DNA of 64,000 nucleotides from Cyanidioschyzon merolae. Its lineage: Eukaryota. The stretch lies in NCBI GenBank assembly GCA_000091205.1, contig AP006498.2. The stretch is one strand, 5' to 3'. This document shows, piece by piece, positions 6,389-35,740 of this stretch. Under the pieces are notes generated by a model. The model searched no databases and was not told the origin of the DNA. It saw only the letters and a list, made by a program, of their open reading frames with translations. Numbering within the stretch: the stretch's first letter is position 1; each line of letters begins with the position of its first letter. The position numbers and the translations under genes were made by a program.

Positions 6389-6810
6389 CCACGTTCACGG
6401 AAACGGTTCCCACCGAATGCGATGCAACCCCCGACGCTGATGCGTCAGCAGGTCTGCGCGCGTGCCCTACCCCGGTTTTATCTCAGGGCGGCGGAGCGCG
6501 TCGATCACCGGCTGCCTGGTGCGCGAAGCTGCGGTATCGCCGCAGTCGCCGCCTTCAGTGTCGTCGGTAGGCGCCAGATGAGCACTTCTTGGTACACAGG
6601 AACGGCGGTTTGCAGAGGAGGCCCCGCTGAATGATTTTTTTTGATGGACCGGACGTTGACATGCACCATGGATCCCAGATTGTGGGATGGATACCGGTGA
6701 TCGAAAGAGCGTTCATCATGCTGCACTCTATGTTCCAGTTCCATTGGTCGTACGTTTTCTCCGATATACTGGTCGTTTCGTACGTTCTACATTGCACCGT
6801 GTGCAAGCAG

Positions 6811-15759: not shown

Positions 15760-18605
15760 TTACCGCGGTGAGCGCGTTGATGTCGACGCTGCTTCTGAGG
15801 CGGCCCCGTTGGCTCCTTCGCCCGAATGCCTCTGATGCAGGGGATTCCCCACAGACCCGTGTTTCGATGCGGTACGTTCCCGCAGCCCGGTCGCCTTGTG
15901 TTTCCGTCGAGCGCAAGCGCGCCGTGCACGACCAACGGTTTCCACAGCATGCTGCGGGGCGTTGGTCACCATCGCGGCTAGTACGGCACCCGTCTGCGCT
16001 GCTAGCTCGGTAGCGAGTTGCGCTACCTGATCGGCCTCGTGTGGGAACGCCTGGTAGGCTGCAGCCACCACAGAGGGCAACGAGAATCCCGCAGTCAACG
16101 AAGCGATCATGAACGATCGGGCATCGATGGCAGCAGCTTGGACCTGCGGGGTGGACTGCCCCGAGACACCCCCGCTTATCGGTGCATCGCTTCCGTTCCG
16201 AATCGAATATACAGCAGCGGTTCGCTGAAGTCGCGGATCCAACGCACTTGCAAAGGCCACTGCAGCCGTCGACGCGGCACCTGTGGAGCTGTCTCTCGCA
16301 GCGCTGGTTGGTGCTTGGCTTGACGCCGCTGCCGCCGGCGTTGCGGCCCCGTCGCGGGTATCCATGGCATCGCTCGACACAGACCTGGTCGATGACGGCC
16401 TCGGGGGTATCGAGCCTGCCGCTCCGCTCCCGGAACCGGACGCTGTGGCGCTGCTCCTGTGGCGCTGCAGCCACGATTGGACCAGGTCGCTCGAGGACTC
16501 AAAATAGAGACCGCGCTGCTCCGCGTCGCACAAGAGTGCATCCCAGTCGGCGCTGTGCGCTCTGAGAGCGGCCGCATGACCCAGCACCACGAGAGATACT
16601 TTGGCCCGCGTCAAGGCCACATTCAGGCGACGAACATCTCCAACAAAGCCAATACCACTGCGATGTTGCGCGGTACGCACAGCCGAGAATATGATGACGT
16701 CCTTTTCCCGACCCTGGAATGCATCCACAGTATCGATTTCGATGGTGCAGGGCATCTGCTGCCCCGGCAGAATGAGGCCGCTCTGGTCGAGTGCCTGTTG
16801 GAGCAGACGCATCTGCGCTCGATACGGTGTCAAGATGCCAAGATGCCACACCCGATCGGATGCTTTCCAGTAGCGCTCATAGAGGATCTCCACAAGCTGC
16901 ATCGCAAACGCCGCCTCCTTGGGATTACTCAGCGACGCTGTCGTAGCGTCCCGCTCCTCTGTAGCCTCGGCGATATCTACGAAGCAGTACGGGCCCAGAA
17001 GCGGCGGCGGTGGCCCAGTCCGATGAAAAGCTGGCCGATAGAGCTCGCTGCGTACGCAATCGTCATTCTTGAGTTGATTTTGGTAGAACCAGCGTGTCGG
17101 AAACGTCGCAATCGCAGGATGCATACGATACTGGGTGTCAAGCAGGTGACCGGTCCAGCCGGCTTGCAGCAGACGTTCCATGAGCGATCGAGCGAGCGCC
17201 ACGCCTGCATCACCTCGACTGAAGACGGTTGCCGGGAGCTGTTGCGGGTCACCGGCTAGCACACAGCGTTCGCACCCGTACTGCAACGGAATCAGGGTAG
17301 CGAGCTCCGTTGCTTGTGCGGCCTCGTCGATGACGACAATGGGGAACGTGCTCGCGCGTGCTTGGAACGCACCATCCAGCGTGGAAACGCTCTCCCCGGA
17401 GCGCTCCGGTAGCGATCGCGCCTCGCTCGCTAGCGGTGCGTCCCGCAGCCACGACTTTATCAGGGCGGCACCGCTGAGCGTGCAGAGCACAATCTCGGCC
17501 TCTTCGAGGTATGTTCCGGCAATCCAAGCAATGCGCTGCTCGCGGCTGATCCGTTGATCCGGCCAGGTTGCCATGCGATAGCGTCGCTCGTCTCGTTGGA
17601 GGCGATCCAGGCGATCCCAGAGCCGCATCAGGCGACCTCGCGCCTCCAGGTCGTGCTGCGGTGGAGCGGGCGTCTCAAGTTGCCCCAGCAGCGCTCTGCA
17701 TTGTTGTTCCCAGTGTTGAATCCATTCTGCGGAATGTTTCGCACTTTCCAGCGCTTGCAGGAAGGCTTCTGCACGAGCCTCGGCAGTCACTGCTCGGGCT
17801 TTGGGATGAACTCGGGCTCCGGCTCCGATTCGAACGATATCAGGATAATAGGTGCGCAGTTTCCCATCGACGAATCCTTCGCGCATGATACGGACAACGA
17901 TTTCATCCACAGCAGCATTGGATTGTGCGGTGACAAGCAGGCGCGGTTTGCGTTGCAATGCAGCAGTATGACGAGCTGTGCGCAGAGCGCTGAGCTTCAC
18001 TGCTGCGGTTGCTGCAGCAGTGGTATTTCGAACCGAATCCAGTAACTGTTCCAGAATGGGTTTTGGTGTCGAGTCCGTCCCGGCAGTCGGCAACGTCGAT
18101 TGGTCGCATGAGGTCCTGGGACGTTCTTCTTCCTGTGCCGCTGGAGATCCAAGTGCGCTCAAGTACGCGTCATAATATTCCTGGTACTTGCTCATATGCA
18201 ACAAGTTCAGCAAAGAGAGCAAGGTTTTCGTTTTCCCGGTACCAGGCGGGCCATGAATCAACGCGAATCCTCTTTGACGGTGCACGGAGGCCCGCACCGC
18301 CTCGTACTGGGATCGATTGAGACCTCGCTGGTTCGAAATCACCGCGAGATATGCATCCAGTTCGGATCGCTGCGGCCCAGGGGCCAGCTCACGCTGCTGC
18401 TCCGCTGCAGCACCTGCCGGATCCAGTATCACAGGAGCCAGCTCCATCTCTGCGATACTGGAGAGCGCACCAAGCTCGCGTGCGTGGTTCAGCGTGCTCA
18501 TGAGACGTATTGCTGGCGTCGGCGGGGTACATGCGGCGTTTTCGGATCCTATGGCGCTGTTCAAGGGACCTGATGAGCAATCTGTGCGAGCTGTTTCCCA
18601 TTGAC

Positions 18606-18639
<34 letters not shown>

Positions 18640-19512
18640 AAGCCAGGCTTCGGCACGTGCACGTTGCATGCGTAGCATCAGCGGTGAGCCCGCCCGGTGC
18701 TGGACAATGCCCAGAAGAGGTTGTTGCCGAATCTCGCGTAGCTGAGCGCCCGTAAGGCGCTGGTCCTCACGCGTACACGGAAGCAACAGCAGAATATCAT
18801 GATCAAAAATGGTTTCTTTGCTCTGAATCTTAATGGGAACTTCCACTAGTGCACTTGATCCCGGTTCGTCGTGAGTTGAAACCGGCTCTGCTGATACCTT
18901 GGTGGCGCCTCGTGGCTCCACTGGAACTGGATCGCCTCGAGTGCTTACCAGCACCACGAGGCCAGACTTTTCTGGCGTCAGCGCTGCGGAGAGTGTCCGC
19001 AGAACACTATCAAACGCGTTGTAGAGCTCACTACATACCTCTATGTCGACGAGCTGCGTGAAGAAGGCGATGTACTCGTCGGGGTTCCGGAACGGAAGGT
19101 TCTCCGCCTCCGAGGACCTTTTGCAGGCACCAGCAACTGCGTTAACTGAAGTTAGAGAGTTTGGCCAATTTTTCGGTTCACTGGACAGAATCCGGTCCAA
19201 AGCCGCTCGCATACCGACATTGACGTTTGCAAACGGTGCACCGGTGGTACTGATAAACGCTGTAGGGAGTGTGTTTTGTTCGCGTAAACGATACCAGAAG
19301 AGTGATACAGTGTTGGCCACTGTGTCTGCGGTGTGGCCCGATGCGTTGGAGGGCGTGCGCGCGGGCGTGGCAGCTACAGGACTGTCGCCGAGCGGCATCT
19401 TGCATCTATATGCTTCACCGCGAGCGGCTCTCAAGCGTTCAGTTGGGAATTCCTGGTCCAGTGTGAACGTTCCTTCGAACCAGAAAAATGGTAAGGAAAC
19501 ATTCTCGGTCAT
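15760..19512 (-). CDS. Superfamily-1B Upf1-like helicase (Sen1/senataxin/MAA3-like) with a long low-complexity N-terminal region.
   Basis: Walker A FALIHGPPGTGKTKTL. VVIDEAAQATELATLIPLQYGCERCVLAGDPQQLPATV. TQYRMHPAIATF. TVDAFQGREKDVIIFSAVRT. RRLNVALTRAKVSLVVLG. These are the AAA_11/AAA_12 helicase motifs. Confidence 0.85.
18606..18638. repeat. (GCT)n trinucleotide run of about 10 units inside the helicase CDS, encoding a poly-Q tract on the gene strand.
   Basis: gctgctgctgctgctgctgctgctgctgct is visible directly. A similar CAG/CAA run lies at about 14375-14410 in COPG. Confidence 0.8.
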
Positions 19513-19572: not shown

Positions 19573-20500
19573 AAATGGAATACCGACCTGCTCGCTCAGT
19601 TCGTGGCTTGCGCATCTCTTCTGAAATATTTGCCGATGTACAGCCTCGATACTACAAGTGCAGATATGTGGGCTTGCCGAATCATGCGTAGATTTCGGTT
19701 TCGTGGTCGTCTAGTCGCAGGAGCTCCCATGCTGCTCTGTCGCTGGAATTCGTGACGTCTCCGATACCAAGATCATCATTCGCGACGCCCTCGAGCAGTG
19801 CCGCTTAAACGAACCGATAGCATCATCCACTTCATACCTGCAAGCCTCCACTCGTCTCCTTTTCGTATATGTAGCACGCTAAAAATCGAGCATTCTTCAA
19901 GTTTTCGATGGATCCGTTCCAAGACACCACTCGTGGACGCAGCGAAGCGCGCGGTCGGATTGACGACGAAACCATCAATCGATGTCGTTCCTGGATGACC
20001 TGTTCACCAAATGATGCCAGGAGTTCACTGGGCTTCTCAAGTCAAATGATCGATTCCATCCAGAAGTCTATCCTTATCTTTTTGACGCCAAAGACGAAAC
20101 GGAATGCCACAGCACCGCCACGGTACCTCCCACGGGAGATGCTCTCGGAGGTTCCCGTCTCTTCGGTTTGGACGGGAAACGGTCTTGGATTCGGAGTTGG
20201 GTTATCGCACCGATGAAAGGGACGGTAGACGGATTGAAATTTCTCGACTCGGGCACCAGCCTGGATACTTTGACCGGTACTTGTTTCATCCTGGATAGCA
20301 CTGTGTTCTGCCAATCATCTATTCGGTACGAAAACGCACGCTTTCGTGTGCAGTGGACAGTGCACTCGCCGACGGGATCGTCCAGAAGAAGTCTGTTATC
20401 GTGGGGTACGGCACCGGTTGCGAAAACGGAGGACGGCATCGAGGTGCGCACGCTTTACCCGCCAGGGGCATGTACTACCGAGCGATGAAGCGAGCATTCT
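19573..20500. mobile_element. Dispersed composite repeat of about 0.9 kb, probably a non-autonomous TE. The A-part is 19573-19950 and the B-part about 20240-20495.
   Basis: The A-part is about 99 % identical to 36907-37284, with only 2 mismatches noted. The A- and B-parts have diverged homologues at 11141-11930, and an A fragment lies at 49925-50100. No TIRs or TSDs were evident by eye. Confidence 0.7.
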
Positions 20501-22578
20501 AGTGCCACGGGGCGGCGCTCAGAGCACCCGCTCTCGTGGACACACGAGAACACCAGACCACAGTCAAGTGTCACTGCTACCAAACGGCGCATCGAGGCTG
20601 CACTCAATGAAGAAGAAAATGGGAAACAAAACGTAGATCGAAATCTGCACGTGTGAATGAAATGCGTAGAAAAGAGCAACACGCAGCGAAAACGGGACGT
20701 TCATACTGCCATCAACATCCTTCGATCGCTGGCAAGGGTGCTGGTGGAAAAAAATGAGCCCGGCATCGCTCACGCCGGAGACCAGATAGATATAAAAAAG
20801 CAGTCGGAAGCAAAGCCCACAAAGTCTGATATTCCTAACGGTTGAAAGATATCGAAAATTTAGAGTGGACGACCAATTTCGTAGAGCCCGTTCCACTGTA
20901 TGCTGATATGGTGTGTGTGCGTGTGTCTGGGACGTGTCCAGATACTCGATGCACCACTAGAGGCGGCAATCGCCAGCCAGCAACTGCGTAACACGCGCAG
21001 AATGAATGAATCTGCGCAACGGCCAGCAGGGCAATTTGTGATGTAGCCGCCAAAATATCCGGGAAACGGATTGTAACGGTTTGGAGTGCTGTGAGTTCTT
21101 TCGAGGCACCGCGTTGCGTAAAAGAAAAAGTCGAGTTCGGGGATCCGTTTCGTTTGACTCTGAAGTTTCAAGCCGGTGATGTGCCGTGCTGCCTACACCG
21201 GTCACTGAGATGAGCATAGTGCTGGTTGGAGCGACTGCCCTATGGAGTTTCGAGTAGGCAATGGAGCGAAGCCTCAATTCAGCGCCCAGTTCCCACACGC
21301 TGGCCATTTCACTGACCCTATTCGAGTTTCTTGAGACACGGGTCAGAATTCAGAGAGAATTGCCTCTGGAGCACAGGGTGGTGGCAACGGATGGGACTTG
21401 TTGCGGCACAGCGCTCCCGAAACAGATCGCAAAACCAGGTGGTTTTCAAACCGACGCAGCAAGAGTGAGAAGCAAAGGTCTTTTGCAGGTACCGCTCGAC
21501 GCCGACCTGGGATGGATGAAACGTATTTTAATGCTTTCATAGTCACGTTGCATGAGATTGGGGAAGCGTACACCTTTCCCCTGACCGAGCGCTGCCGCTC
21601 ATACGAACGCTTGGAACTTTCGGTACCTGGAGATCTTCCAGGAGAAGCTGTCACTGCAATGGAAGGTTGCGAACATGGTCCCTATAATTGGAGAAGGTAT
21701 CTCGTACTCGAGACATATGTGTTTGCACTTGCGCGCCGCGTAGCAACAAGAAGCCGTGCATGCAAGGCCGGCACGTACACACATGAAGCGGGATCAAGCC
21801 GATGCGTGTCGGTCTCAGAGGTTTGGCGTTGATGCTTCATCGTACGTTGCCTGCCCCGATGCCGCACGAGCCCGCGCACAATTGAGCAACGGATCGTGAG
21901 ATGCTCTTGTGCTGCTCGATGGAGCTTGCTATCATCGATGCGCAGGTTTCCTGGAGTGCCTGGTATTGCCTCGATGCCACCGATCGAATAGCGGCTTGCT
22001 CAAAACGATTGGCTGCGTAGGCTGGTAACCAAATGGAACCCAGGGCGCCGCTGACCCGCGTTCGCCACATGCGATGCTCGCCACACCTGGTCACGAATCT
22101 GCAGTCGAATGGTGGTGTGTATGCGCTCGATGCTGGCTGGGGCGGCAACCGTGCCCCACGCCCAGGATGCATCCACCGCCCGAGACGCATCGGTGGGGAT
22201 CATTGCGGGTGCGCAGCGGCCTACCGCGCGATCGACGATCGGGATCTCGTGCCAGCGAGGCACGGGGCTGAAACATGGACGAAGTAGGACCTTGCGGACA
22301 AGGCGGACACGGGGGCGACACGCGTCGCGCGTGCGGTGTTGACGGCGGCGGTTTCCAGCGATGCATGTCGCGTCACAAACGCGCTCGTCTGACGCTGCCT
22401 TGGGCCACAGAATGCGGACTGCGCTGGGGCGTTTCCAACACGCGCTCTGAGGGCACTGTTGAAGCGTTGGTCGGAGTTTCGGGACGCTGACCAGCTACTG
22501 GTTCCGTATTCTGTGTGACGAGGGTCAAGTGCTCGCTCGTTGTCTCTATTGGCGAGTTAGCACGCACGAAACCTGGCC

Positions 22579-24891
22579 ATGAGGGCAGACACGGTCGCAT
22601 TCCTCGTTTGGAGCGGACTTGGTCCAAACTCGAGGCAGCCGCGTGCGTCGTCGTCGAGGTCACTGCTACGTCTGCAAGCAGGTGCCGCTAGCCACGAAAA
22701 CGAGCCGCCTGTTGGTAGTCGCGAGCAGAAGCAGTCGGCTTCTTTGAAGTACGAGGCTGCAAAAGAGTTACCAGCGGGCGCGAATGAAAACGCGTCCCCG
22801 CCCGCGAACCATAAAATCACGCCGACGAACGGGGTATCGCCGAGAATCTCTCTACAAGAGCTCACGGGGCGTACTGGTAGGCTACTGCGATCCCAACGTA
22901 ACGGGAGCGCCGGCGGAGCACCAGCGGCTTGCTGGGACCAGGGCGCCGCCAAGGTGCCGAGTGCACCAGCAGCAGCGGCGTGGCTCGCAAAGCGTCGCGC
23001 CATCTTACAGGAACCTGTCTCGGTTTCCGCGCTGGTCGAAGATGTCATCCCGGGGGGAGTCAGGCACAACGGCACGAATCAGGTCCGAAACCATGCTATG
23101 GACGAGAACGCGGCCTCTCGAGCCAACTGCAGCCAGCATGAAGCCCCGACCGCTGCCGCAGCGTATCGCGAGTCGCTTAGCGGGAGTGTCGTTGTCCAGA
23201 ACTCACCGTTCCGCGAAGTAGTGGTCATCTTTGGAAAGCGTCTCGTGCGTGACCAGATAACCTACGAATACGCTGTGCGTATTCTAACGCTCGTCCGGCA
23301 CATGGTTACAGGACGTATCAAACCTTCAGCAGTATGCTTTACCGGCGGCCGGGATCATCCCGATAGTTTGGTCAGCGAAGCCGTTGCCGGATACCTGTTC
23401 TTTCGCCATGTGTGCGAAGAATTTAGCATCAGCCTCGATTCAGTAGCGATTATCCTAGAGGAACAGCATCTGAACGCGCGAGATTGCATGTCGTCGATAC
23501 TTACCCAACTCGGGGAGCAACTCGTAGGCTCCCATTTTACCTTTGTGAGCAGCGACTACCACTTGATACGTATTCGAGAGGTAGAGGCGGCAGCTCCGAA
23601 CTTGTCGCTTTTGGCACCACTGCGCAAACTGCGCGGCACCGTGTCGTATGCATACACGACGTACCCGTTCGCGCTCTCGAAGAACGCAGCAGTAGCACTT
23701 GCTGGTCGGGCAATCGTCATCGCCGCTGAGCTGGGTATCATGATCGTGGCACTGCGCTCGTACATCGAGGAACGCGGCCTCTTCCAACGCGATGTATTCC
23801 GCCGCTTCCAGGAGGCCACCATCGAACTGGGAAATCTGTGCGAGAAATGCAGTGCAGCCCTGCAGGTACAGATCCCAACAGCGTCATCGACGACGGATGA
23901 TATTGTATTCACTCAAGATATCCGCCTGGTAGGAGAGGTGATCGAAAGTGCTTACTTTGAATTGCGCCAGGTTATCCGTGTGCTGGAGCAGTGGGTTTTG
24001 GAGAAAAGTCCGCTAAGCCGCATGGAGCTACAGAATATTTTGCAACAGATCACAATAGTTGAGCAGAGAATTAGGAGCTCCCTCGATCCAGACCGGCCGC
24101 TAACGGCAATGGAATGGAATCACCTGCCTCTGGTGTTCCTAGCACCAGTCCTTGGACCAGGATTCGAGCAACACAGTTTATCAGGGGATCCTGGAACGCA
24201 ACCTTGGATTCCTACATCACCAGCAGGAGCAACCCCAGCACCAACGACGGCGACGGTGACAAGCTCAGTGCATGGATCCACCATTGCACCCGCAACGGCA
24301 GCGTACGCGACATCACGAACCGAATCGGCGCTCTCGTCTGCACCAGCCGCCAATCGAAACGCAACGACAACGGACTCGTCATGGGAATCCTCGTCGTTCG
24401 TATCGCCTTCGTCGTCGATGACGACGTCCGCGGCGGTGGCAGCGGAACATGCAGCAGCAGCAGCAGCGTGGCATCTTCGGAAACCGTCCGCGTCGCCCCT
24501 GAACGGTGCTGGTGCTCGACTGCGCCACTTTGCGTCGATCGTCGCTGAAGCTTCGCAAGCCATCTTTCACGAAGTGCTTCGACCTGAAAACCACGAGGAA
24601 AAGGCACGACGTATTTCCGAGGAAAATCGACGACGGCGACGACAGGCTGCCGCTGAGTCGGGTCCCGGTCTGTCACCCGCGAAACTGCGTGCGCACCGCG
24701 AGTCCCACGCTGCATCCGGCACTGCGAATAGACGAAGTGCTCGTACGACTGCTGCATCAAGGCCTGCGAACGGGCACGTACCCAACGGAACCAGCGCATA
24801 CCATGAGCCTAAGCCGCCTGCTTCCGGTCGGGAAACGGACGCAGACACAACAACGTCGGACCGTTTCACGGACAAGCGCACGGCAACCTAG
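22579..24891 (+). CDS. DUF218 (YdcF-like) domain protein with long Ser/Ala/Thr-rich low-complexity flanks.
   Basis: Core VVVIFGKRLVRDQITYEYAVRILTLV...AVCFTGGRDHPDSLVSEAVAGYLFF...AIILEEQHLNARDCMSSIL...FTFVSSDYHLIRI fits the DUF218 pattern (GG...SEA..m...E..S.nT..N...VTs.yH). Confidence 0.5.
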   Translation: MRADTVAFLVWSGLGPNSRQPRASSSRSLLRLQAGAASHENEPPVGSREQKQSASLKYEAAKELPAGANENASPPANHKITPTNGVSPRISLQELTGRTGRLLRSQRNGSAGGAPAACWDQGAAKVPSAPAAAAWLAKRRAILQEPVSVSALVEDVIPGGVRHNGTNQVRNHAMDENAASRANCSQHEAPTAAAAYRESLSGSVVVQNSPFREVVVIFGKRLVRDQITYEYAVRILTLVRHMVTGRIKPSAVCFTGGRDHPDSLVSEAVAGYLFFRHVCEEFSISLDSVAIILEEQHLNARDCMSSILTQLGEQLVGSHFTFVSSDYHLIRIREVEAAAPNLSLLAPLRKLRGTVSYAYTTYPFALSKNAAVALAGRAIVIAAELGIMIVALRSYIEERGLFQRDVFRRFQEATIELGNLCEKCSAALQVQIPTASSTTDDIVFTQDIRLVGEVIESAYFELRQVIRVLEQWVLEKSPLSRMELQNILQQITIVEQRIRSSLDPDRPLTAMEWNHLPLVFLAPVLGPGFEQHSLSGDPGTQPWIPTSPAGATPAPTTATVTSSVHGSTIAPATAAYATSRTESALSSAPAANRNATTTDSSWESSSFVSPSSSMTTSAAVAAEHAAAAAAWHLRKPSASPLNGAGARLRHFASIVAEASQAIFHEVLRPENHEEKARRISEENRRRRRQAAAESGPGLSPAKLRAHRESHAASGTANRRSARTTAASRPANGHVPNGTSAYHEPKPPASGRETDADTTTSDRFTDKRTAT

Positions 24892-25001
24892 CGTGCTACC
24901 AAAGGCAAGTCGATAGCCGCCAGCCCCGCCCCTAGTCAGCAGGGCTTTGAACAGCGTGCACAGCGAACCCGCTTTCCCCAATTGTAACGAAAAAGTAGTT
25001 C

Positions 25002-25448
25002 CTAAGCAACTTTTTCCAGTTCACTCGCTTCGAAATGAGCGATAAACTTCTTACTACCCTCGAGCATGACCTGGATAGGTCGAGTCGCTGAGATCGGCAC
25101 CCCCTGGTACTCGTCAACGAACTTGGTTACGACTCCTTCGAGACCACGCACATCATGTGGTTGTCCCTTACTCATCGGCGTGTGGTACATAATCACAGAC
25201 TGCGTCACACGCACCCGGTCACCGACCTTGAAGTCGCCGCGACGTTCAGCGGATAGGCAGAGTCGCGGCGCCCGAGCAGCGGTGCGCCAAAGCTCCGTCC
25301 CTCGTCTACTAACTGGCATCCGTGCAAGCCGGTCTTTGTGCCACAGACAACTTGAGCTTGTCCGATCACGAGTTCGGGGTGCATAAGGTCCCGCTAGAAA
25401 ACAAGCACGCCGCATCATGAAGGTCGTTCGTATCCGCACTTGTTTCAA
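25002..25448 (-). CDS. FTRV: Ferredoxin-thioredoxin reductase variable (alpha) subunit with an N-terminal transit-peptide-like extension.
   Basis: C-terminal 75 aa KVGDRVRVTQSVIMYHTPMSKGQPHDVRGLEGVVTKFVDEYQGVPISATRPIQVMLEGSKKFIAHFEASELEKV match the plant FTRV core (VRVT..l.VYH.P......l.GmEGv......WkGk.ISAnLP.kV.....KF.AHL...E.E). The N-terminal roughly 70 aa are Arg/Ser-rich. Confidence 0.6.
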   Translation of the reverse strand: MKQVRIRTTFMMRRACFLAGPYAPRTRDRTSSSCLWHKDRLARMPVSRRGTELWRTAARAPRLCLSAERRGDFKVGDRVRVTQSVIMYHTPMSKGQPHDVRGLEGVVTKFVDEYQGVPISATRPIQVMLEGSKKFIAHFEASELEKVA

Positions 25449-26949
25449 GCGTCTGCCGCCCGGAAGGCGCTAGGTCGGCACTGACGCCGCTCATGGACGG
25501 CGCCCGGCGGAGGCGCACGCGATCCGCGCATCGCTGCGCGTGCTCAGAGAGGGGCGGTTTTGCACCCGCCGCTACGCATCGCTGCGCGACGTCCAGCAGC
25601 GAGCGCCGCGATCTCGCAGGATCGCGGCGTGCGAGCGTTGGCGCCTCGTCTTCGGCGATGCGTTGGAGAAAACGTTTCAGGTGAGCGCGGATCCCAGGCA
25701 GCGGCACGGGTATTGACACGCTGGTACGCGTTCATCAAACTGCATCCGACCTCCGCGTTCGATGACTCATGAATTTTTCGGATGTACTGATCGTTTCATA
25801 TGATCTATCGTGCGCCGAGTGCCTGCCTTGAGCACTCGTCTTGGCGCCTAAACCGCTGGAGCAGATTCATCACGGATGCAGAGCGGGTTTGTCGTACCGC
25901 TGAAGGTGTCGACTCGAGGCGTGGTGCCTCTGACACCGGAATCAGGATTCATTACGATTCTAGGAGCCAGCGTGCTGCGCAGACAGACCTACTGCCTGCG
26001 ACAGCGCGAATCGATAGACTAGGATATAACTGGAACATAGGCTACACCCAGACGCAGCATGCTCGCTCCTGGTCATAGGATGAGCTGCGTTTCGGACGAG
26101 TTGTTCAGGTCTCGCTACAGCGGTCGCCAATCTCGAGAGCATAAAGCAGAAGCTTACCAGAGTCGGCCGGCTCGTTGGGCCTTCCTCCAAGAAGATAAAC
26201 TTTCGAAAATAGAGAAAACGTCTCCCCGTTTTACGGTTTAGCATATAGGGGAAAGCAATTGTCATCAAGTCGGTAGTTAACAGGTAGTTTCTGCTTTTTT
26301 TGTATCGCACGGTCGATGAGCGGAACTGCGTATTTAGAAGGCATGAGATACGACGCGCCTCTCGCTGCTGGAAGGAAACGCGATCTTGATACTTCGCTTG
26401 TTGCTCTGACGGACAAGCTGTATGTGCGCTGATGTCGTAGCAAAGTCTAGCTTTTCAGTTCCATTGTGTTTCGACCCCCAAGTCTGTGTACTCAAGTGCT
26501 TTTTCGCGGTTTACCGCAGAATCGTTCGAACAGCGTTCTTTTTCAAAAACATAAAAAAGGAAAGTTCTGGAAATCAAAGTGGAGGATCCTGGGGACGCAG
26601 TATCGCCGGCTGCCAGAAAAACCAAAAAACAGTGCCGAGCAAAGACGAACAAGATAAGACCATGAAGCAAAAAGGGGTGGGGTGGTCCGACGTCAGGATC
26701 TGCGCGAACGACGACACAACGACGAGATGTTCGTGAAAGCGTGTCTTCTTGGCCATATCAAGGATCCGTACAAGCAAAAGTTGCAAGAGTCCACAAGAAA
26801 CCGTGTCGAGTCGCAATCGATGAGTGTTATATAGGCGTCGTCAGGAGAAATGCATTTAGTGAAGGACATAAATCGCGATGTGACGGATATCAAAACAGTC
26901 TAGGCTCCGGAGGATTTTTCAGCGAAAGCTTTATTCGTCACCTGATGGT

Positions 26950-28943
26950 TTGCACAGGGAAACGTCGAGGAGAAATGAGCATGTGCACGCTCTCCACGAA
27001 AATTACGCCCAATGCCGCTTGAAGGGTGCTCGATACAAGGCTGACTCGCGTATTTACGAACACGGGACGATGAAGCACCTCACGAACCTGGAGAATCGCG
27101 TGATCGTGAAACTCGAACGCTCCATGATACGCTCCATCTTTGCGCTGTACCCGGGCCTGTCTCGCAAAGGGATACGGGCCATCGTCGGTGGCATCACGAT
27201 CGATAGTAGGCATGAGTGGGAGATCGAATTTGTCGAAAAGAAGACATCACGCAGAAGAAAGAATGAAGGTTCTGTAATCCGTGCGGCTATTCAAGAGCAT
27301 CATGCGGTCTTGGGGCTAGTCGACCCAGCAGAAAAGGTATCAGGATCGAAAGAAGATGAAGAAAGATGGGATCACCTCATGCTGCGCTATTTCGTGTTTT
27401 TCGGACCGAGAACTCGAACGCAAGGCCGAAAATGAGCAGGGTGTGGATGCAAATGAAGCGTCGGATACGCGGAAGGCTGAGCTTCTGGAGAAGCGCTTCA
27501 ACGTCGTTCTGTTATGCGAGATCAAGTCACATTTTGTGACAGTCGACTCCAGAGCCCTTGACGGCATCATGCAGGAGATCAGTTCGGGGTTAGGTGTCAG
27601 CACGAACGAGGTTACGGGCGAAAACCGGGAAACTCACTGAAGGAGTATCATCGATTCCAAACTTCTCAAAACGAGCAAGAAAAAGGAATTTACGGGGATG
27701 TTCGAAAGCGATGGGGTATCCATATGTCGACACTATCGGCGCTTGAAGGCAGACCGTCCAGTTCGGCCCTCGGCTTCGTCCTCGGCGAACCATGAAGAAA
27801 ACAAGGAGGCGGATCCTGCGACGCAGGAGGTGGAGGAGAACGACTTTATGGTTGGCGCGGCGAAGCATAAAGATGGGATGGAGGCGGGTCCTTCGCCGCA
27901 GGACATAGAGGATACCGACTTGTCGCTGGCGCAGACCCCGGAAACACAAAGATCATAACCATCGCTGTGTCCACGCGTGCGGAAGATGGTAACGAGGGTA
28001 ACTTATGTCGGAGAGACATGCGTCTGTGGAGGTTCTCGAGAGCAAGAGACTAAAGAGAATCCGGTATAATGAATGCGAGGAAGAACATCGAGATGTGGAA
28101 TGCAGGAATGAAAGAGCACCTGGAAGCTATGAGCCAGGTGACGAGCCGCGGAGCGGACTTGAAATCTTTTCTGAAATCCATGGAGGTTCGCGTTGCTCAT
28201 TGGGAGGCGCTGTGAAAAGAATATACAAAACCCCGGTGGGCTCGTCTGCGTATGAATCTATACAGTGGAAGCAGCGGGCATTCGCGAATTTTTTCAATGA
28301 GTTGAGCGCCTTGAAAGAGGATGAAAGTCAGAGGCTCGTAGTAGCATACGGAGCAGGACGATGGAAGACTCAAAAAGGGACTACGCCAGCTCCAACGACG
28401 AGAATGTATAACGGGTGTGCAAGGAGTTTCGCTACGATACCTGTAGATGGATTCCGAACGTCGTCTACACACCATGAACTGGGCTGTACACTTCAGAGGG
28501 CAGAGGTGGAAAAGTGCCAGCGGAGCCCTGAGGCTATAAAAAAGTACGGACCGCTGACGGAAGAGCAAATGGAAAGGAGGGCGAAACTTCGAGGGCTACT
28601 CGCATGGGTTAGTACAACCAACGGGGCCAAGAAACGCATGGAGTCCGTGAATCGAGCCTCTAATGCCGCCATCAATATCAGACGATGTTCGGTGCTGGAT
28701 ACAGGACCCGCGGGGCTGACGCGATCCAGTTTTGCGGGGCAATCTCTCCGGCTCGAAGTGAACAGGGAGAAACTGATGCCAATAGCAGTGGGCTGGTCGA
28801 AAACGACAGGTATGCGTCTGCGCCTAGTTATTCATGTGCCTTACACATTCGTGGTGTATTTTCGTTCCATTGACCATGTACGATGTAAGTTCGCAGCACG
28901 GTGCCTTGTTCGTGGTGTCGCATTCCTGCATGGATCCGAATGA
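26950..28943 (+). mobile_element. Candidate decayed or intron-containing TnpB/Fanzor-like element. A frame-broken ORF series (26950-27435 frame 1; 27356-27958 frame 2 with a single in-frame TGA at 27638) precedes the 28005-28943 ORF.
   Basis: The block is compositionally AT-shifted relative to its neighbours. Consecutive same-strand ORFs sit in three frames. The C-terminal ORF carries TnpB/Fanzor RuvC-II/ZnF/RuvC-III-like motifs (see the CDS entry). Confidence 0.4.
28005..28943 (+). CDS. TnpB/Fanzor-like protein fragment or derivative (RuvC-II / zinc-finger / RuvC-III region), copy 1. Catalytic residues appear substituted.
   Basis: LVVAYGAGRWKTQKGTTPAPTTRMYNGCARSFATIPVDGFRTSSTHHELGC ... NRASNAAINIRRC. 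This matches the eukaryotic TnpB/Fanzor pattern GxGxF/W...KG..P.P...v..VdEyrTSk.C..C ...RDvNAA.NI. The E becomes G, the D becomes A, and both CxxC pairs are absent. The N-terminus has an NLS-like KRLKRIR. It is paralogous to 40965-41657. Confidence 0.5.
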   Translation: MSERHASVEVLESKRLKRIRYNECEEEHRDVECRNERAPGSYEPGDEPRSGLEIFSEIHGGSRCSLGGAVKRIYKTPVGSSAYESIQWKQRAFANFFNELSALKEDESQRLVVAYGAGRWKTQKGTTPAPTTRMYNGCARSFATIPVDGFRTSSTHHELGCTLQRAEVEKCQRSPEAIKKYGPLTEEQMERRAKLRGLLAWVSTTNGAKKRMESVNRASNAAINIRRCSVLDTGPAGLTRSSFAGQSLRLEVNREKLMPIAVGWSKTTGMRLRLVIHVPYTFVVYFRSIDHVRCKFAARCLVRGVAFLHGSE

Positions 28944-29397
28944 CCCCGGATGCACGATTGCAGCCTACAACCCGCGGTAGAGGCACCTCTATCCCCGTAG
29001 CTGCTTCGACGCTGCAGTGAGTGGAATTCAGTTTACTCGTCTGGGCTAGAGAGCTTGATCCAGTGGTCCTGCGAAAGCCGAGCTCACTGCACATGCTCGC
29101 TGAGATGGGGTATGCGTCGGTGCTGTCGCGATCGCTGTCTGGTAGCAGGCGTCCTCCATGGGGCGTTCACGGGTGTCTGAACGACGGGTCGGCACAAATG
29201 GGTAATGGAGGGAAATAGGTCACAGATGAACTTTATGGACAGCGACCACGTATGCAGCACTTTGCTTATGGCGTAACATCGATGAATTCAACGCGAACGC
29301 TTCCCATGGACTGCGAGCACGCACGCGGTGCTGTTGCGCCTTGCTTCCGCGCTGCACGCTCAGCCGGAGAGCGCTCCGTTGCTCGCCAGGCGTCAGC

Positions 29398-29421
29398 TTG
29401 TCTCTGTGTGTGTGTGTGTGT
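29398..29421. repeat. (TG)n dinucleotide microsatellite of about 9 units.
   Basis: tctctgtgtgtgtgtgtgtgtgttg is visible directly. Confidence 0.85.
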
Positions 29422-30018
29422 TGCAGCGATGCCAGCGGGTCTAGCGCCAAACAGGCACGTATGGGACGTTCCTGCCGCATGTCCATCCAGCGAGGCGTGG
29501 TCTTCGATCCGTTAGCGCCTGACCGGATACGAGAACGGGCGAGCGTGCATGCGTCTTGCTGGAATACCTGTCGCCGCTGCAAATACACCATTCCTGTGGA
29601 AAGCGTGCTCAGCCGATATCGCTACGATCAGGCCCCTAGCATGCAACTTGTGGTGGTACGCATGCTCTGGTGTGCGCGGCTCAAGCGTTGTCTTCTGGTC
29701 CCGTTCCCGATGCAAAAAACACCAGATAAAAGGATCGTTGATGCTGCCGCCATCTTGCACATACTGGCATGCCAGATGAACATGTCCCGTATCCGGATAA
29801 CTGCTCCGAGGTCCGCGCAGCACCTTTGAAGCACATACGAAGTTTTGATATGTGCAGCGTCTGCGATGGCGTTTTCTCTGGCCGGCTTCAGGACTCAGTT
29901 CAACTCGCGTGACCTTAGAAACACGCAGCATGTAGACGGCATTCACAAAGCTGCTCAGCGTGGCGGGACGTACATCGCGGCTTGTAGCGCAGCTACCCTT
30001 GGATGCGAGAGAGATCGC

Positions 30019-31029
30019 TCAAGTCTTCCGTTGCGGTTTTCTTCGCGATAGCGGATTCGGGCCCCGCGACTTGTTTCGTTTGAAAGCTTTCGTAATATTC
30101 GTTTTGGCGTCCATCCAGGGCAGCTTTGTTGTCCTCTTTGGACGTGAAACACGCGCCACGTTGGCCGAGTCCGGGAGCGCACGCGAAGCGTCGGGATTCG
30201 TGCCCAACTCGCCAGTACGCACCTGCAGCTCTGAAGCCGCTGCGGGTTCGTTCACCTTTGCAAGTGACAACCTATAACCAGACGCTGCCGGACTGCTGCT
30301 TTGTTGGAGCGCCCGCTGAGCCTCATGCGCAGCCGCTACCTCGGCCGGTGTCGCCGCGTACACTCGTTGATGTTGCTCGCGCGCCTCCTGAAGACAAGCC
30401 GTTGAGGGCGGCTCTATCTGGACGTGCAAGCCACCACTGAAAACAGCCAATTGGAGCAACATCGTACCAGCCGTCGCCTTCAAGCGCGATCGCAGAGTGC
30501 TATCCAGTGCCGCTACCGCAAAACGGCCTCGGGAGCGTGTCAGTCCCGCCTGCTGCGCAGTCTCGGGGCCACGCTCGACGCAGGCTTGAATGCAGTCCGC
30601 TTCAAAGTGTTCCTGACCAGGATCAAGCTCCTTGTGTTTCGGGTGTCCACATGGGAGGAGCTCCAGCTGACGAGCTAGCCAACTGACCCGTCGCCAGTGA
30701 TCGCCCACGCGTTTTTGCTCAGCAGACGAACGCTGGACCTCTGCGCCTCCACCTGTGGAGTGCGGAACCTTACCCGTCTGATTTTCTCTATCAGCAATCT
30801 TAATTTTCCTTGAAATCGCTCGCATCGTGCACGTAGTTACCAAGGTACGTACCTGGTTCTTCCCGAACACCCTTATAAACAGCGACGGAAGCGCTTTGCT
30901 CGAGCGGCGCTGCACCAGCTCCCCCAGGAACGCGCTGTCGAGGATCACCCGAAAAGGCGGGCGGTACCCAAACCGCGTCGCATAAAACTTGACATGCTTT
31001 TCCTGTCTCTTCTGTCGTTGTAAACGCAT
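30019..31029 (-). CDS. UTP23: rRNA-processing protein UTP23 (PIN-domain small-subunit processome component).
   Basis: N-terminus MRLQRQKRQEKHVKFYATRFGYRPPFRVILDSAFL aligns with human UTP23 MKITRQKHAKKHLGFFRNNFGVREPYQILLDGTF. C-terminal KSRGPNPLSRRKPQRK aligns with KKISGPNPLSCLKKKKK. Confidence 0.85.
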   Translation of the reverse strand: MRLQRQKRQEKHVKFYATRFGYRPPFRVILDSAFLGELVQRRSSKALPSLFIRVFGKNQVRTLVTTCTMRAISRKIKIADRENQTGKVPHSTGGGAEVQRSSAEQKRVGDHWRRVSWLARQLELLPCGHPKHKELDPGQEHFEADCIQACVERGPETAQQAGLTRSRGRFAVAALDSTLRSRLKATAGTMLLQLAVFSGGLHVQIEPPSTACLQEAREQHQRVYAATPAEVAAAHEAQRALQQSSSPAASGYRLSLAKVNEPAAASELQVRTGELGTNPDASRALPDSANVARVSRPKRTTKLPWMDAKTNITKAFKRNKSRGPNPLSRRKPQRKT

Positions 31030-31234
31030 TGCATCCTCAACGAGTCGCCGAAGTTAAACTGCTGTGCTGCACACCAAGCCGCCAGCCGGATACGTTGCCA
31101 CCGAGTTGCAGCGCCCGAGATGCGCCCGCTGTGGCGCTCGCACCTTGACCCTCAACCCAGTGGCGGTGCTTCTGGGAGACGGTTCCTATCAGTGAGTTTG
31201 TGCACCGGATAGCGACGTAGCAGAGCGTGCGATC
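31030..31234. promoter_or_regulatory. Short (about 205 bp) divergent intergenic region shared by UTP23 (-) and the DUF202 gene (+); presumptive bidirectional promoter.
   Basis: Head-to-head gene arrangement. No motif-level evidence. Confidence 0.3.
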
Positions 31235-32086
31235 ATGTCGGAGCAGACGCCTCTGCTCAGCCAACGTAGCCCAGAAGGCGTTCCGGAGGGTGCAGGTACA
31301 CGCGCGGCCCCTGGTCGAGCCGCCAGTGCCCAGATCACAGGCGGCCTCGACTACGACTTCGAGGAGGACGACCTTGAGGCAGGTTCCGACGACGAAAATC
31401 CCGAGCACGCCCAGCACATGTGGCCGAAGACCGGGCCGAACTCGACTGGATCGAGCTTCGTGGAACGCGCTGCCCAGACTGTAACGGACTTTGTACTGGG
31501 CGAGCGAAGTCGCACACCTATCGCAGGAACGAGTTCGACGCCACCGGAGCACAGCACGCAGCTTACTCGCGACACCGATGAAGACGATCGAAGAGACGAC
31601 GGTGACGCTGGAGCAAAGAAAAAGAAAAAGAAGAGTAAACGAAAAGAGCGCGACGTCGACGATATTGAAGCGTGTCCTTATGATACGATAGAGTCTGCAC
31701 GCAAGCCAGTCAAAGGGGACGACCTCAAGACGCATATGGCCAACGAGCGCACTTTTTTCAAGTGGCTCTTTACTGGCTTTCATATCGGAGCGATGGGAAC
31801 GTTTATTCTGAGCTTTTATTCTGACGATAGCGGTCGACCTGGAACCGGAAAGATCCTGCTCTGTCTAGCGATATGGATGGTTGCACTCGTCTATGTGATG
31901 TACGGATTGATCAACTTTTATCGACGTCGCCGTGCACTGCGCCAAGGTCTAGGCAAAGAGGAATGGGATAGTGGTGCTGGCCCTGCGTACGTAGTGGCTG
32001 GACTCGTTCTCGTCATTGGGAGTGTGTTAGTGTATTCGTTAGTGACCGGACAGGCACCGCGGCGATGGCAGCAAGCGCAAACCTGA
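31235..32086 (+). CDS. DUF202 (YidH-like) membrane protein with an acidic/basic low-complexity N-terminal half.
   Basis: MANERTFFKWLFTGFHIGAMG matches the DUF202 signature (aNERTfLaWlRT). Two further predicted TM helices lie downstream. Confidence 0.6.
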   Translation: MSEQTPLLSQRSPEGVPEGAGTRAAPGRAASAQITGGLDYDFEEDDLEAGSDDENPEHAQHMWPKTGPNSTGSSFVERAAQTVTDFVLGERSRTPIAGTSSTPPEHSTQLTRDTDEDDRRDDGDAGAKKKKKKSKRKERDVDDIEACPYDTIESARKPVKGDDLKTHMANERTFFKWLFTGFHIGAMGTFILSFYSDDSGRPGTGKILLCLAIWMVALVYVMYGLINFYRRRRALRQGLGKEEWDSGAGPAYVVAGLVLVIGSVLVYSLVTGQAPRRWQQAQT

Positions 32087-33230
32087 ATCGATGCCGTCAA
32101 ACCGAGCTGCTGGCTCTGCAGGGCACCGCACGGAAGACCAACGACTCTGAGAAAGATGCTGGAGTGCTCCAATGCCGTCGCTTGCGGCTGGTTTCGAAAC
32201 GAGCTTTCCACGCGGATCGAGGCGAGGTCTGCAGCGGGGCGGGATGCTCTTTTGCGGAAAGGATGTTACCGCAAGGGTTTTGAGGGCGTCGCTCCAGCCA
32301 GGATGCCGGCGGCAAGGGATGGGCGACGAAGGCCACTCGACCATTTTGGGTCGGTTATGAAGTTATGGATGTTGGGGTGCGCCTCGGAGGTATCCCTTTC
32401 CCGAGTGGACCTGGACGATTCTCACGTGAACGAGGCACGTTTTCCCTTGAGGGCTACTCCTGCGGCTGGAACGGAACTTGGATTCTGGATGAACCGTGGA
32501 CTTTTTCAAGCGATATGAAACGCATCGTCCCGGCTTGCAGATGATCGAGCTGCATACTTCTCGCTTGCCACCGTGCGACTCTACCTGAGGCCGATTCGAG
32601 CGAAAACAGCAGCACGCATACTCGACGCAGTGCGCTCTGCTTCGGTAGCTAGTCACTGGCTTCTTTTTATCTAACACGACCGGCTCATGCATAGGACTGA
32701 AAGTGACTGGAGCTGGAACGAAAACCGTACGATGGAGTGGATCTCCTGAGCACGTGCCTCCGAGTCCGTTGTGCATTGCTTTGCGTGCTGGCAAACGCCA
32801 CCAACAGTTGTCTTGCTGATCAGGCGCAAGAACCGTTGCGGTTGTCCGATTCATCAGCCGCCGGAGAGGTCAAAACTTTGTGGACAATCGCGAGCACTGG
32901 CGTCGGGACACACTGGAACACGGCTTGCGCACAGCAGCTAGCTCGACACCGGCAAACAGAACGCGTGTTTGCGACTGCCTCCTTCGATGCGGACAAGTGT
33001 CGTGGTGGTGCGTGGAAGCACCCACTGAGGCAAGCATTCGGTTGAATCCGCTGTTGTGAAACGCGAGTTTCTCTTCTGGTACTCTTTAAAATCGTGGGTA
33101 CACCTCGATGATGCCCGAGGCCATTCTGGTCCAGCAGACGCCGTCCAGTTCAGGTAATCGCTTTTTCTTGCGGATAACGACCGAGCGCGACACCCCGCAC
33201 ACCTGCGATACAAGTGCTTAGCGCAGGCGT

Positions 33231-34325
33231 TTAGAGAGTGTAGCTCACTTGTGCTGAACACTGTGGCAAATTCCTTTCAAAGACAAACAGCGATCGCTTT
33301 GCGCAGGCCACCTGGTACCCGTGGCCTATTCCGCGGAAACGGGGAGCCAGCGTCACCACCCGGCGCTTCCGCGCCTCAAGTAGTTTCCTACCGATGGCAT
33401 TGTAGATTGTGAGTGTGATCGCTGCGAGCGGTGCGAGGTACATGACTCGCGGAACGGAGCCTTTCATGAGCGTTGCCGGACCCTCCTCTGCAATGATGCG
33501 GCGGAAAGTTGGCAGAATGCCGCGATACGTGCCGTCAGCGCCTTGGGTCATCAGACGGGTCTTCACGACATCTACGGGTGTGAGCATTAAGGCCGCAGTT
33601 GCACCTCCTATTGCGGCTAGGACGAGGTTTTCTTGTCGGTTCGGAGCGCGTTTCTGAATCCGTTCGAAAAGGCGCGACTCTTGGAGGAAAAATAGAAAGG
33701 AAAGCGCGTTCCAAGGAACATCACGAGAAACCGTTGCCCAGTAACCACGATATAGGCCACCGAATCCTTCTTTCTGGAGAATGGTGGGCAGCGCGACCCC
33801 GATGTGAGGATATAGATCCGCCTGGATGCGCTGTTTGAGCACTTCTTGCGGCACTCGAATAAAGGATGCTGCGAAAGCGCCGGCAGCTCCGGAGACCAAA
33901 TCCACCACAACCTGTCGCCAGGCATGATTGCGACCAGAAGACGTAACTTTTGTTGACGCTTGTTTGGTATGCGAAGCTGGCGGCAGTAGCAGCTCGGTGA
34001 GGCGTTGTTTGCACCACTCGTACGCAACGAACTGCACGCCGCCCGCTGGCACCGCGAGAACAACCTGCGGTATCACGCCTTTGATAAACACCCGCGGTGA
34101 CCAGTCTCGACGAACACCCCGGGCCTGAAGTCGGGTACGCACCACATCTATTGGGTGCAGCAGGGTCTGCGCAACACCACGAGCCGAGGACCCTGCCAGC
34201 AACTTCTCCGTAAACGTTAGCTGCGAAAGCGCATCAACGCCAGTGGTCGTAGCAGCTCCGGCGCTGACTGCAATGACAGTTCCAGTTGTCTTCGTAAAGG
34301 CGTTTTTATTCTCTTTTGAACTCAT
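33231..34325 (-). CDS. Mitochondrial carrier family (SLC25) protein.
   Basis: Three-fold repeat bearing carrier signatures HPIDVVRTRLQ and TPVDVVKTRLMTQ, with six predicted TM segments. Confidence 0.85.
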   Translation of the reverse strand: MSSKENKNAFTKTTGTVIAVSAGAATTTGVDALSQLTFTEKLLAGSSARGVAQTLLHPIDVVRTRLQARGVRRDWSPRVFIKGVIPQVVLAVPAGGVQFVAYEWCKQRLTELLLPPASHTKQASTKVTSSGRNHAWRQVVVDLVSGAAGAFAASFIRVPQEVLKQRIQADLYPHIGVALPTILQKEGFGGLYRGYWATVSRDVPWNALSFLFFLQESRLFERIQKRAPNRQENLVLAAIGGATAALMLTPVDVVKTRLMTQGADGTYRGILPTFRRIIAEEGPATLMKGSVPRVMYLAPLAAITLTIYNAIGRKLLEARKRRVVTLAPRFRGIGHGYQVACAKRSLFVFERNLPQCSAQVSYTL

Positions 34326-34649
34326 GGACGTTGTGCGGTCGAGAGTGAGTTCTGGTGTTGCGTGCCGGAGCGAGGCACTGAATTGAACCTATATCGTTTC
34401 GTCCGGTTAGACGCTGAAGAGTACCCTACAGAGCCTCAGTTCAAGTGAATATCCGGTAATACCTAGTTAAAGAAGGCTCAATCGGTTCCAGTAGACACCT
34501 GTTCGAGAAGAGGGATACAATCCGAGCCAAAACTTACGTTCGTACACGTGTACCACAAGAGACTGTAAAACCGCCTTCGAGCCGATGCTCGTAGCGAGCG
34601 CCGCAGGCCACGGCAACCGTTCTGCGGATCGCAGCTGCTCGCGGCGATC

Positions 34650-35740
34650 ACCGGCAGCTCCGGATGGAGAATTTCTGATGAAAAGAAACGAAAAGTCGAT
34701 TATGTAGAATACAGAGGCTCCAAACCAGGGATTCCTCCCTCGTACAATCGTTTTGTTGGTTGAATAGAGCTCGGCAGCTCCGGATGGAGAATTTCTGATG
34801 AAAAGAAACGAAAAGTCGATTACGTAGAATACAGAGGCTCCAAACCAGGGATTCCTCGTCATGCAAATCGTTTTGTCGGTAGAATAGAGCTCGGCAGCTC
34901 CGAATGGAGAATTCCTGATGAAAAGAAACGAAAAGTCGATTACGTAGAATACAGAGGCTCCAAACCAGGGATTCCTCCTTCGTACAATCGTTTTGTTGGT
35001 TGAAAAGAGCTCGGCAGCTCCGGATGGAGAATTCCTGATGAAAAGAAACGAAAAGTCGATTATGTAGAATACAGAGGCTCCAGACCAGGGATTCCTCCTT
35101 CGTACAACCGTTTTGTTGGTTGAAAAGAGCTCGGCAGCTCCGGATGGAGAATTCCTGATGAAAAGAAACGAAAAGTCGATTACGTAGAATACAGAGGCTC
35201 CAAACCAGGGATTCCTCCTTCGTACAATCGTTTTGTTGGTTGAAAAGAGCTCGGCAGCTCCGGATGGAGAATTCCTGATGAAAAGAAACGAAAAGTCGAT
35301 TATGTAGAATACAGAGGCTCCAGACCAGGGATTCCTCCTTCGTACAATCGTTTTGTTGGTTGAAAAGAGCTCGGCAGCTCCGGATGGAGAATTCCTGATG
35401 AAAAGAAACGAAAAGTCGATTACGTAGAATACAGAGGCTCCAAACCAGGGATTCCTCCTTCGTACAACCGTTTTGTTGGTTGAAAAGAGCTCGGCAGCTC
35501 CGGATGGAGAATTCCTGATGAAAAGAAACGAAAAGTCGATTACGTAGAATACAGAGGCTCCAGACCAGGGATTCCTCCTTCGTACAATCGTTTTGTTGGT
35601 TGAAAAGAGCTCGGCAGCTCCGGATGGAGAATTCCTGATGAAAAGAAACGAAAAGTCGATTACGTAGAATACAGAGGCTCCAGACCAGGGATTCCTCCTT
35701 CGTACAACCGTTTTGTTGGTTGAATAGAGCTCGGCTGGTA
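34650..35740. repeat. Tandem satellite with a 120-bp unit and about 9 copies.
   Basis: The unit gctcggcagctccggatggagaattcctgatgaaaagaaacgaaaagtcgattacgtagaatacagaggctccaaaccagggattcctccttcgtacaatcgttttgttggttgaaaaga recurs with exact 120-bp periodicity (unit starts at 34769, 34889, 35009 ...). Copies differ by a few SNPs. Confidence 0.95.

Follow-up and report, generated by a model that had tools for sequence, protein, structure and literature searches.

Mobile elements in which a mariner-type transposon carries a Fanzor1 gene have been known for some time. Bao and Jurka (2013; PMC3627910) described PUl-1, PUl-2, and PGv-1 and, in the same work, reported CMe-1A, a Fanzor1 family of the alga Cyanidioschyzon merolae with a 3,169-bp consensus and without terminal inverted repeats (TIRs). 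Nozaki et al. (2007; PMC1955436) counted eight class II elements whose resemblance to bacterial transposases is weak (E 0.071 to 6e-7). The published transposon inventory of the species is very small, with this single TIR-less Fanzor family, the eight class II elements (PMC1955436), and no MITEs (miniature inverted-repeat transposable elements), the last according to P-MITE (PMC3964958). Here we discuss a dispersed repeat family of about 1.36 kb, by which the C. merolae inventory gains a mariner-type element with TIRs and a further lineage of Fanzor1, its second. Five of its members lie in the window, by which we mean the whole stretch of 64,000 nucleotides that was analyzed (GenBank assembly GCA_000091205.1, contig AP006498.2, placed by exact-sequence look-ups on chromosome 16 of strain 10D; Table 1), and two of these share a near-identical tract, called H, that flanks a 17.3-kb block of genes. 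We consider it likely that the unit is a long-dead, non-autonomous, internally deleted Tc1/mariner-IS630 derivative with a Fanzor remnant, and that the near-identical pair has been homogenized and is now recombining. The family itself is a point of annotation and transposon history, of a kind already known and not a new mechanism; the structural polymorphism at H is the more useful result.

Four of the window members are about 1.36 kb in size (one of them, C4, is cut by the window end) and the fifth, C2', is truncated. The old copies are 63-66% identical to one another and 75-77% identical to a majority consensus (74.7% for C1, 77.1% for C2, and 77.2% for C3). A core 22-mer, ATSATTCGCGACGCSYTCGARC, occurs four times in the window and not once in 100 shuffles. 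Metagenome contigs from several hot springs, 99.2-99.8% identical to the window where collinear, were treated as population samples of C. merolae; scanned with the same core, they gave 71 loci, over which a profile search returned 65 matches. At least 13 distinct full-length members sit on different contigs, besides assorted truncated ones, so that a segmental duplication confined to this locus is rejected. A scan of viral contigs with the core 22-mer gave no match. When 14 members were aligned with 1.5 kb of flank, conservation stood at 60-80% across about 1.4 kb and, beyond sharp boundaries, at background level on either side. Anchored alignment of the ends revealed an 18-bp TIR, with the left consensus TGTCAGATnAAAATGGAA (13 members) and the right consensus, reverse-complemented, TGTCAGAATAAAATGGAA (12 members).

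A first-pass annotation of the window, made from the sequence alone, had already pointed to a dispersed family, to a near-identical pair with unrelated flanks, and to diverged copies near 11.1 kb and 49.9 kb, and all of this stands. Its measurements need correction. The pair extends over 380 bp with three differences (offsets 96, 238, and 375; 99.2% identity) and not over 378 bp with two mismatches, the diverged copies are 63-66% identical in pairwise comparison instead of 70-75%, and the separate A-part and B-part of a 0.9-kb unit turn out to be one continuous homology of about 1.36 kb. It had found neither TIRs nor coding capacity evident; the former are given by the 18-bp consensus, and the latter survives as Pfam-significant transposase and Fanzor remnants. 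The minus-strand member C4 had been overlooked and came to light by self-comparison and profile search.

No member contains a long open reading frame (ORF), and the frames left open differ between copies. The 1,363-bp majority consensus, built from the 14 diverged copies, brings back two coding relics. The first (frame 0) opens with MYSLDIRS and extends via FVAIDETAF as far as CFIMDNIAFHKS; it represents the N-terminal 235 aa of a transposase and ends shortly past the second catalytic Asp. It matches DDE_3 (PF13358) with an E of 3e-10 and 40.5 bits (cutoff 28.6), with weak helix-turn-helix (HTH) matches ahead of the DDE_3 match, and aligns from Met1 with the intact 307-aa transposase P0010 (E 1e-26). 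Of the catalytic residues, the third is deleted; the motifs of the first two, both Asp, are present as DETAF and DNIAFHK. The second relic (frame 2), ILYRMEQRALACAADSV...KKPVIVGYGTGRGNGGGHRGEPSVPVKGMY...VVDIWEHLTTVKCHRCEG...RNFRLCMKCV...NRDFNAAINILRLL, represents the C-terminal 155 aa of a Fanzor protein. Its C-terminal motif is a [TS][TS]-x-x-C4 zinc ribbon followed by RD (VVDIWEHLTTVKCHRCEG...RNFRLCMKCV...NRDFNAAINIL); it matches PF07282 (Cas12f1-like_TNB, formerly OrfB_Zn_ribbon; E 1e-7, 32.2 bits, cutoff 26.3) and shares 50% identity with the Fanzor-like protein P0007 (682 aa) over residues 521-670 of the latter (E 1e-48). The RuvC-II Glu, the zinc ribbon, and the RuvC-III Asp are kept; the RuvC-I Asp and the entire N-terminal two thirds are missing. 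A search of solved structures with this relic gave no match even at E 10. Stops or frame changes interrupt both relics in all 14 members examined (C1, for example, has stops or frameshifts in both), which means that the family is dead and that these are relics of Fanzor genes and not Fanzor genes.

The anatomy suggests how the family came about. Its parent would have been a composite of about 3.3 kb consisting of a TIR, a DDE_3 transposase, a Fanzor1 (TnpB-like) nuclease, and a second TIR. A single internal deletion could have fused the transposase, just past its second catalytic Asp, to the last ~155 Fanzor residues, so that the remaining 1.36 kb would have kept the two 18-bp TIRs and lost both enzymes. 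Because all copies share one junction, the deleted form itself must have spread, probably with transposase supplied in trans, and after spreading the copies would have decayed to their present mutual identity of 63-66%, each gathering stops and frameshifts. The layout of such a parent exists intact on another contig: a 3,273-bp ENA contig carries the P0010 gene (110-1033) and, after a 92-bp gap, a same-strand gene for a 636-aa PF07282 protein (1126-3036). The family is a clear case of a transposase-Fanzor composite spreading after internal deletion, and the earlier suggestion of a non-autonomous DNA element is borne out by its TIRs, its defined ends, and a transposase remnant without a complete enzyme.

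The closest described relatives in architecture are the mariner elements with Fanzor1 (PMC3627910). The likeness lies in the order of the proposed parent (TIR, DDE transposase with an N-terminal HTH, same-strand Fanzor1, TIR; about 3.3-3.6 kb) and in the [TS][TS]-x-x-C4 zinc finger with RD in the Fanzor relic (TTVKCHRC ... CMKC ... NRDFNAAINI). On the other hand, the C. merolae family is known only in its 1.36-kb deleted form with both enzymes incomplete, it does not show the TA target-site duplication, and its TIR is unrelated to the terminal sequence of PUl-1 (supplementary file of Bao and Jurka).

Several points tell against this derivation. No autonomous or intact parent was recovered in C. 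merolae, and the closest intact transposase is only 30% identical. The consensus retains one stop and its two relics lie in different frames, so the deletion junction is approximate. A TA target site is the hallmark of Tc1/mariner elements. No TA was found beside the TIRs; most of the flanking dinucleotides are YG at the left end and TG at the right end. Aligning the copies, as had been proposed earlier, did define the ends; it did not resolve a target-site duplication (TSD), none being consistent in the anchored alignments of both ends. The TA signal may have been lost by decay of very old copies, or the terminus may be misplaced. With the hallmark unseen, superfamily membership is assigned from the transposase relic and the TIRs only. 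As for intact Fanzor-like proteins elsewhere, the closest one with usable DNA, P0004 (610 aa), adjoins an RNA polymerase II Rpb2 gene; its contigs (L095-L099, from JGI 3300031394 and related) come from quite different samples and carry an unannotated ORF of 222-234 aa just upstream.

CMe-1A, presumably the element named TE-N2_CMe (PMC1955436), is also present in the window. Its near-full-length decayed copy inside the block is what the first-pass annotation had called a Fanzor-type element, with the 1.36-kb repeat as its possible mobilizable ends. Both families belong to the same genome and contain decayed Fanzor1-type coding sequence, whereas their DNA similarity is confined to 29 nt at the RuvC-III motif and their Fanzor relics are 26% identical. 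Moreover, CMe-1A is about 3.2 kb long and has no transposase, in contrast to the TIRs and DDE_3 relic of the 1.36-kb family. The short overlap and the low relic identity make the two families distinct, which rules out both the identity of the repeat with CMe-1A and its role as the ends of the latter. At 51.6-52.1 kb, CMe-1A is represented by an internally deleted form, and several metagenome contigs break at the CMe-1A 5' end (~25.6-25.8 kb). A CMe-1-like ORF (28005-28943), identified via the published CMe-1 sequence, and a second ORF at 40965-41657 gave no significant Pfam match; the latter (230 aa) shares 36% identity with the C-terminal portion of the former and probably represents one more Fanzor-like relic in decay.

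Judging from their description, the eight class II elements may include copies of the 1.36-kb family. A DDE_3 (IS630-like) relic would give just such a weak transposase similarity. The description differs in mentioning no TIRs, Fanzor part, or internal deletion, and in counting eight elements against at least 13 full-length members, plus truncated ones, here.

We now turn to the pair. In the window, one copy of H stands at either end of the block, between the genes for a Sen1-like helicase and XPD. With L for the helicase side, R for the XPD side, Y for the sequence after the left repeat, and X for the sequence before the right repeat, all four junction types occur in independent assemblies (Table 1): those of the occupied site, that of an empty site, and that of a circle or tandem. 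The contig Ga0078972_1010819, rebuilt from L014 and L089, is 16,742 bp long and has an exact terminal overlap of 121 bp, which identifies it as a closed cycle; it comes from the same sample (3300005573) as the empty-site contig L004. Single-nucleotide polymorphisms (SNPs) in the repeat go with the flanks: offset 375 is G beside Y and T beside R in every case, and offsets 44, 79, and 96 largely follow L versus X. Furthermore, the integrated-form haplotypes L045 and L042 correspond exactly to the two reciprocal products of an exchange between L004 (empty site) and L014 (loop) within offsets 97-192.

These data suggest that reciprocal homologous recombination in the 380-bp tract interconverts the integrated state of strain 10D and an empty site plus a closed product. 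The empty state would read helicase-H-XPD, and the closed 17-kb product, containing H, would be either a circle or a head-to-tail array. Such a mechanism is plausible in C. merolae, where recombination is known to be efficient, gene conversion occurs, and tandem multicopy arrays are tolerated (PMC3764038). Judging from the assemblies, the polymorphism is probably real. If so, the 380-bp relic pair marks a recombination-active site, and the 10D arrangement is not the sole one in nature. In the empty-site form, the divergent intergenic region between Sen1 and XPD is short and consists mostly of the relic.

The rival account that survives best holds that the empty site and the loop are assembly artefacts, all natural genomes being reference-like and the assemblers having crossed over in the 380-bp repeat. 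It draws strength from the fact that a misresolved repeat node with two ways in and two ways out yields exactly an L-H-R path plus an X-H-Y cycle. Which assemblers produced the JGI contigs is not known, the H versions in 3300005573 agree fully over stretches of 96 and 111 nt, and several contigs (L102, L103, L033) break in or near H. However, L-H-R was obtained in five independent assemblies, among them L005 (MEGAHIT k141), which crosses H unbroken over 22 kb. The 121-bp overlap of the cycle implies k=121, longer than the longest stretch shared by the H versions (111 nt), and the 22-mer scan found no L-H-Y or X-H-R contig from 3300005573. The L-H-R haplotypes also bear SNPs of their own that are common to several samples. 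We thus regard an artefact as rather unlikely and give preference to recombination in H. Critically speaking, three further points count against the latter: the evidence consists of assembled contigs only; the change may have been either excision or integration; and, as the block genes appear to be single-copy in 10D, a plain deletion would remove the only copies and might not be viable.

Known forms of recombination between direct repeats (Campbell-type exchange, extrachromosomal circular DNA [eccDNA], and unequal sister-chromatid exchange) provide the nearest parallels. As in these, a block lies between direct repeats of 380 bp, the four junction types are found, the repeat SNPs segregate with the flank of their own side, and the arrangements are reciprocal recombinants of one another. 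The locus differs from excision systems in having no site-specific recombinase or att site, the homology being a transposon relic, and in carrying ordinary single-copy cellular genes instead of a mobile-element gene set; among the block ORFs of at least 120 aa, no integrase, Rep, or partition gene was seen. An LTR-like pair (long terminal repeats) of a 17-kb retroelement was also considered and rejected, as the content is cellular genes with no reverse transcriptase or integrase.

More speculatively, part of the natural population might hold the 17-kb gene block outside chromosome 16, as a stably inherited circle or an amplified head-to-tail array that would enter and leave the stretch between Sen1 and XPD through homologous recombination at H. 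We put this forward tentatively, as something possible yet doubtful. A literature search for Cyanidioschyzon DNA in circular or extrachromosomal form turned up no relevant work. Were the 17-kb form a real circle, this alga, whose nuclear genome is counted among the simplest and most static, would possess an unusual natural episome or eccDNA with cellular genes on it, possibly also a lead for vector design.

Two further observations concern the contigs of this region. L022 (Ga0506597_000385; 5374-6736) tracks the window from 34516 down to 29411 and departs at a (CA)n run; beyond this point it carries a ribosomal protein S2 gene that is absent from the window, so that the contig is chimeric or else represents a third arrangement here. 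In addition, seven metagenome contigs from different samples begin not at the repeat boundary (37285) but 38-70 bp farther right, at 37323-37355, and no repeat or simple sequence accounting for these starts was found there.

Returning to the family as a whole, the units could be structured noncoding RNA (ncRNA) genes, as proposed earlier, or could retain a functional Fanzor guide (omega) RNA at their 3' end. Guide RNAs of TnpB and Fanzor are encoded at the 3' end of the nuclease ORF or element. The unit does keep this end of the Fanzor ORF together with the ~190 bp that precede the right TIR, and the region ranks with the better conserved stretches in the alignment. Yet an Rfam scan of the whole window at the gathering threshold gave no match, RNAalifold on the last ~225 nt of 13 decayed members yielded 0 pairs and an energy of 0, conservation along the unit tracks the coding relics, and no intact Fanzor of the same lineage was seen in the alga. 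An RNA function is thus very improbable. The small-element labels fare no better. MITEs are generally shorter than 800 bp, lack coding remnants, have TIRs and a TSD, and reach high copy numbers, whereas the present unit of 1.36 kb consists almost wholly of coding-sequence relics. Short interspersed nuclear elements (SINEs) have a Pol III promoter (a tRNA-, 7SL-, or 5S-derived head), no TIRs, and a 3' tail. Here, TIRs are present and there is neither an Rfam match nor tRNA-like sequence; a tRNA scan of the whole window found no tRNA genes, in line with the earlier remark that no tRNA A/B boxes were evident.

The near-identity of the pair calls for its own explanation, for which recent transposition and gene conversion had both been proposed. 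In its favor, transposition of a still-active short element would account for 99.2% identity between copies with unrelated flanks, and the right copy opens with a good left TIR (TGTCAGATTGAAATGGAA, beginning TGTCAGATTG...). The left member, C2, instead starts with 10 bp (TACCAGCGTC) that match the TIR poorly; identity begins right after these, at element base 11, and ends internally at the truncation point of C2', at base 390 and without a right TIR. All other pairs of copies are ~35% diverged, none of the 14 members has an intact transposase, and no further near-identical copies were found among the 71 metagenome loci. Since transposition would carry the whole terminus, the first 10 bp of which lie outside the tract, and since there is no transposase source, gene conversion or recombination between old, direct-oriented members fits, and recent transposition is highly unlikely. 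Ectopic conversion or recombination would thus have homogenized a 380-bp tract of the full-length C2 and the truncated C2'.

Weakest of all is the notion that the units encode a domesticated, still functional transposase-Fanzor chimera: all copies do keep the same fusion architecture, and gene callers place ORFs of 250-280 aa on some of them (P0001, P0002), but both relics have in-frame stops or frame changes in 14 of 14 members, the open frames differ by copy, the transposase part lacks the catalytic Glu, and the Fanzor part lacks the RuvC-I Asp and the N-terminal two thirds, which leaves hardly any room for it. A protein-coding gene family was likewise rejected.

Several members lie close to genes. 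The right end of C1 is 123 bp upstream of the coatomer-gamma ATG, the left end of C2 is 50 bp upstream of the ATG of the Sen1-like helicase (at 19512, minus strand), and C2' ends ~122 bp upstream of the XPD ATG, so that its proposed contribution to the XPD promoter is plausible. The helicase contains a poly-Q run, and its called products range from 1209 to 1250 aa across strains. In exact-protein look-ups, neither the mitochondrial carrier nor the DUF218 protein is on record in the version that the window encodes, and CMP061C served in their place. Four block genes were looked up in 90% clusters: three have a single NCBI entry in theirs, and the thioredoxin-reductase chain falls in a cluster without an NCBI entry. 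The tandem array inside the block comprises ~10.5 copies of a 120-bp unit with 92-94% identity; metagenome contigs stop at the array or collapse it, and its copy number probably varies between strains.

Table 1. Repeat-family members, tract H, block genes, and CMe-1A copies with their window positions, followed by the metagenome contigs that carry each junction type (L, R, X, and Y as in the text)
Feature	Position	Strand	Details
C1	10963-12340	+	Full length, 1,378 bp, TIR to TIR; nhmmer model positions 2-1354
C2	19563-20908	+	Full length, 1,346 bp; nhmmer profile match
C2'	36896-37287	+	3'-truncated; model positions 2-388 only
C3	49760-51132	+	Full length, 1,373 bp; profile match
C4	62941-64000	-	Right TIR at 62941-62958; 5' third beyond window end
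H, left copy	19573-19952	+	380 bp; element bases 11-390 of C2
H, right copy	36906-37285	+	380 bp; in C2'
Block between H copies	19953-37285		17,333 bp; includes right H copy and rest of C2
Sen1-like helicase (BAM81715.1)	15760-19512	-	Left of block
DUF218 protein	22579-24891		In block; Pfam
Ferredoxin-thioredoxin reductase variable chain (FeThRed_A)	25002-25448	-	In block; Pfam
CMe-1A, near-full-length decayed copy	25666-28821		Inside block; 81-83% identical to published consensus
CMP061C, Fcf1-like (BAM81718.1)	30019-31029	-	In block; Pfam and exact-sequence look-up
DUF202 protein	31235-32086		In block; Pfam
Mitochondrial carrier (Mito_carr; SAM-type)	33231-34325	-	In block; Pfam
120-bp tandem array	34532-35791		Inside block
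XPD (BAM81721.1)	ATG 37409		Right of block
CMe-1A fragments	6653-6804, 48447-48663, 51613-52086 (minus strand)		Mapped with published consensus
L-H-R (empty site, one repeat, no block)			L004 (3300005573), L005 (ERZ27247228, MEGAHIT k141), L009 (3300050389), L100 (3300050379), L101 (3300050378)
L-H-Y (left junction as in the reference)			L040, L104
X-H-R (right junction as in the reference)			L042
X-H-Y (junction of a circle or tandem)			L065; Ga0078972_1010819

Two minor repeats complete the picture of the window. A 60-bp direct duplication (55099-55158 and 55167-55226) has 97% identity and a spacing of 68 bp, and a weak inverted repeat (676-860 and 40141-40326), with ~68% identity over 189 bp, lies outside both families described above.

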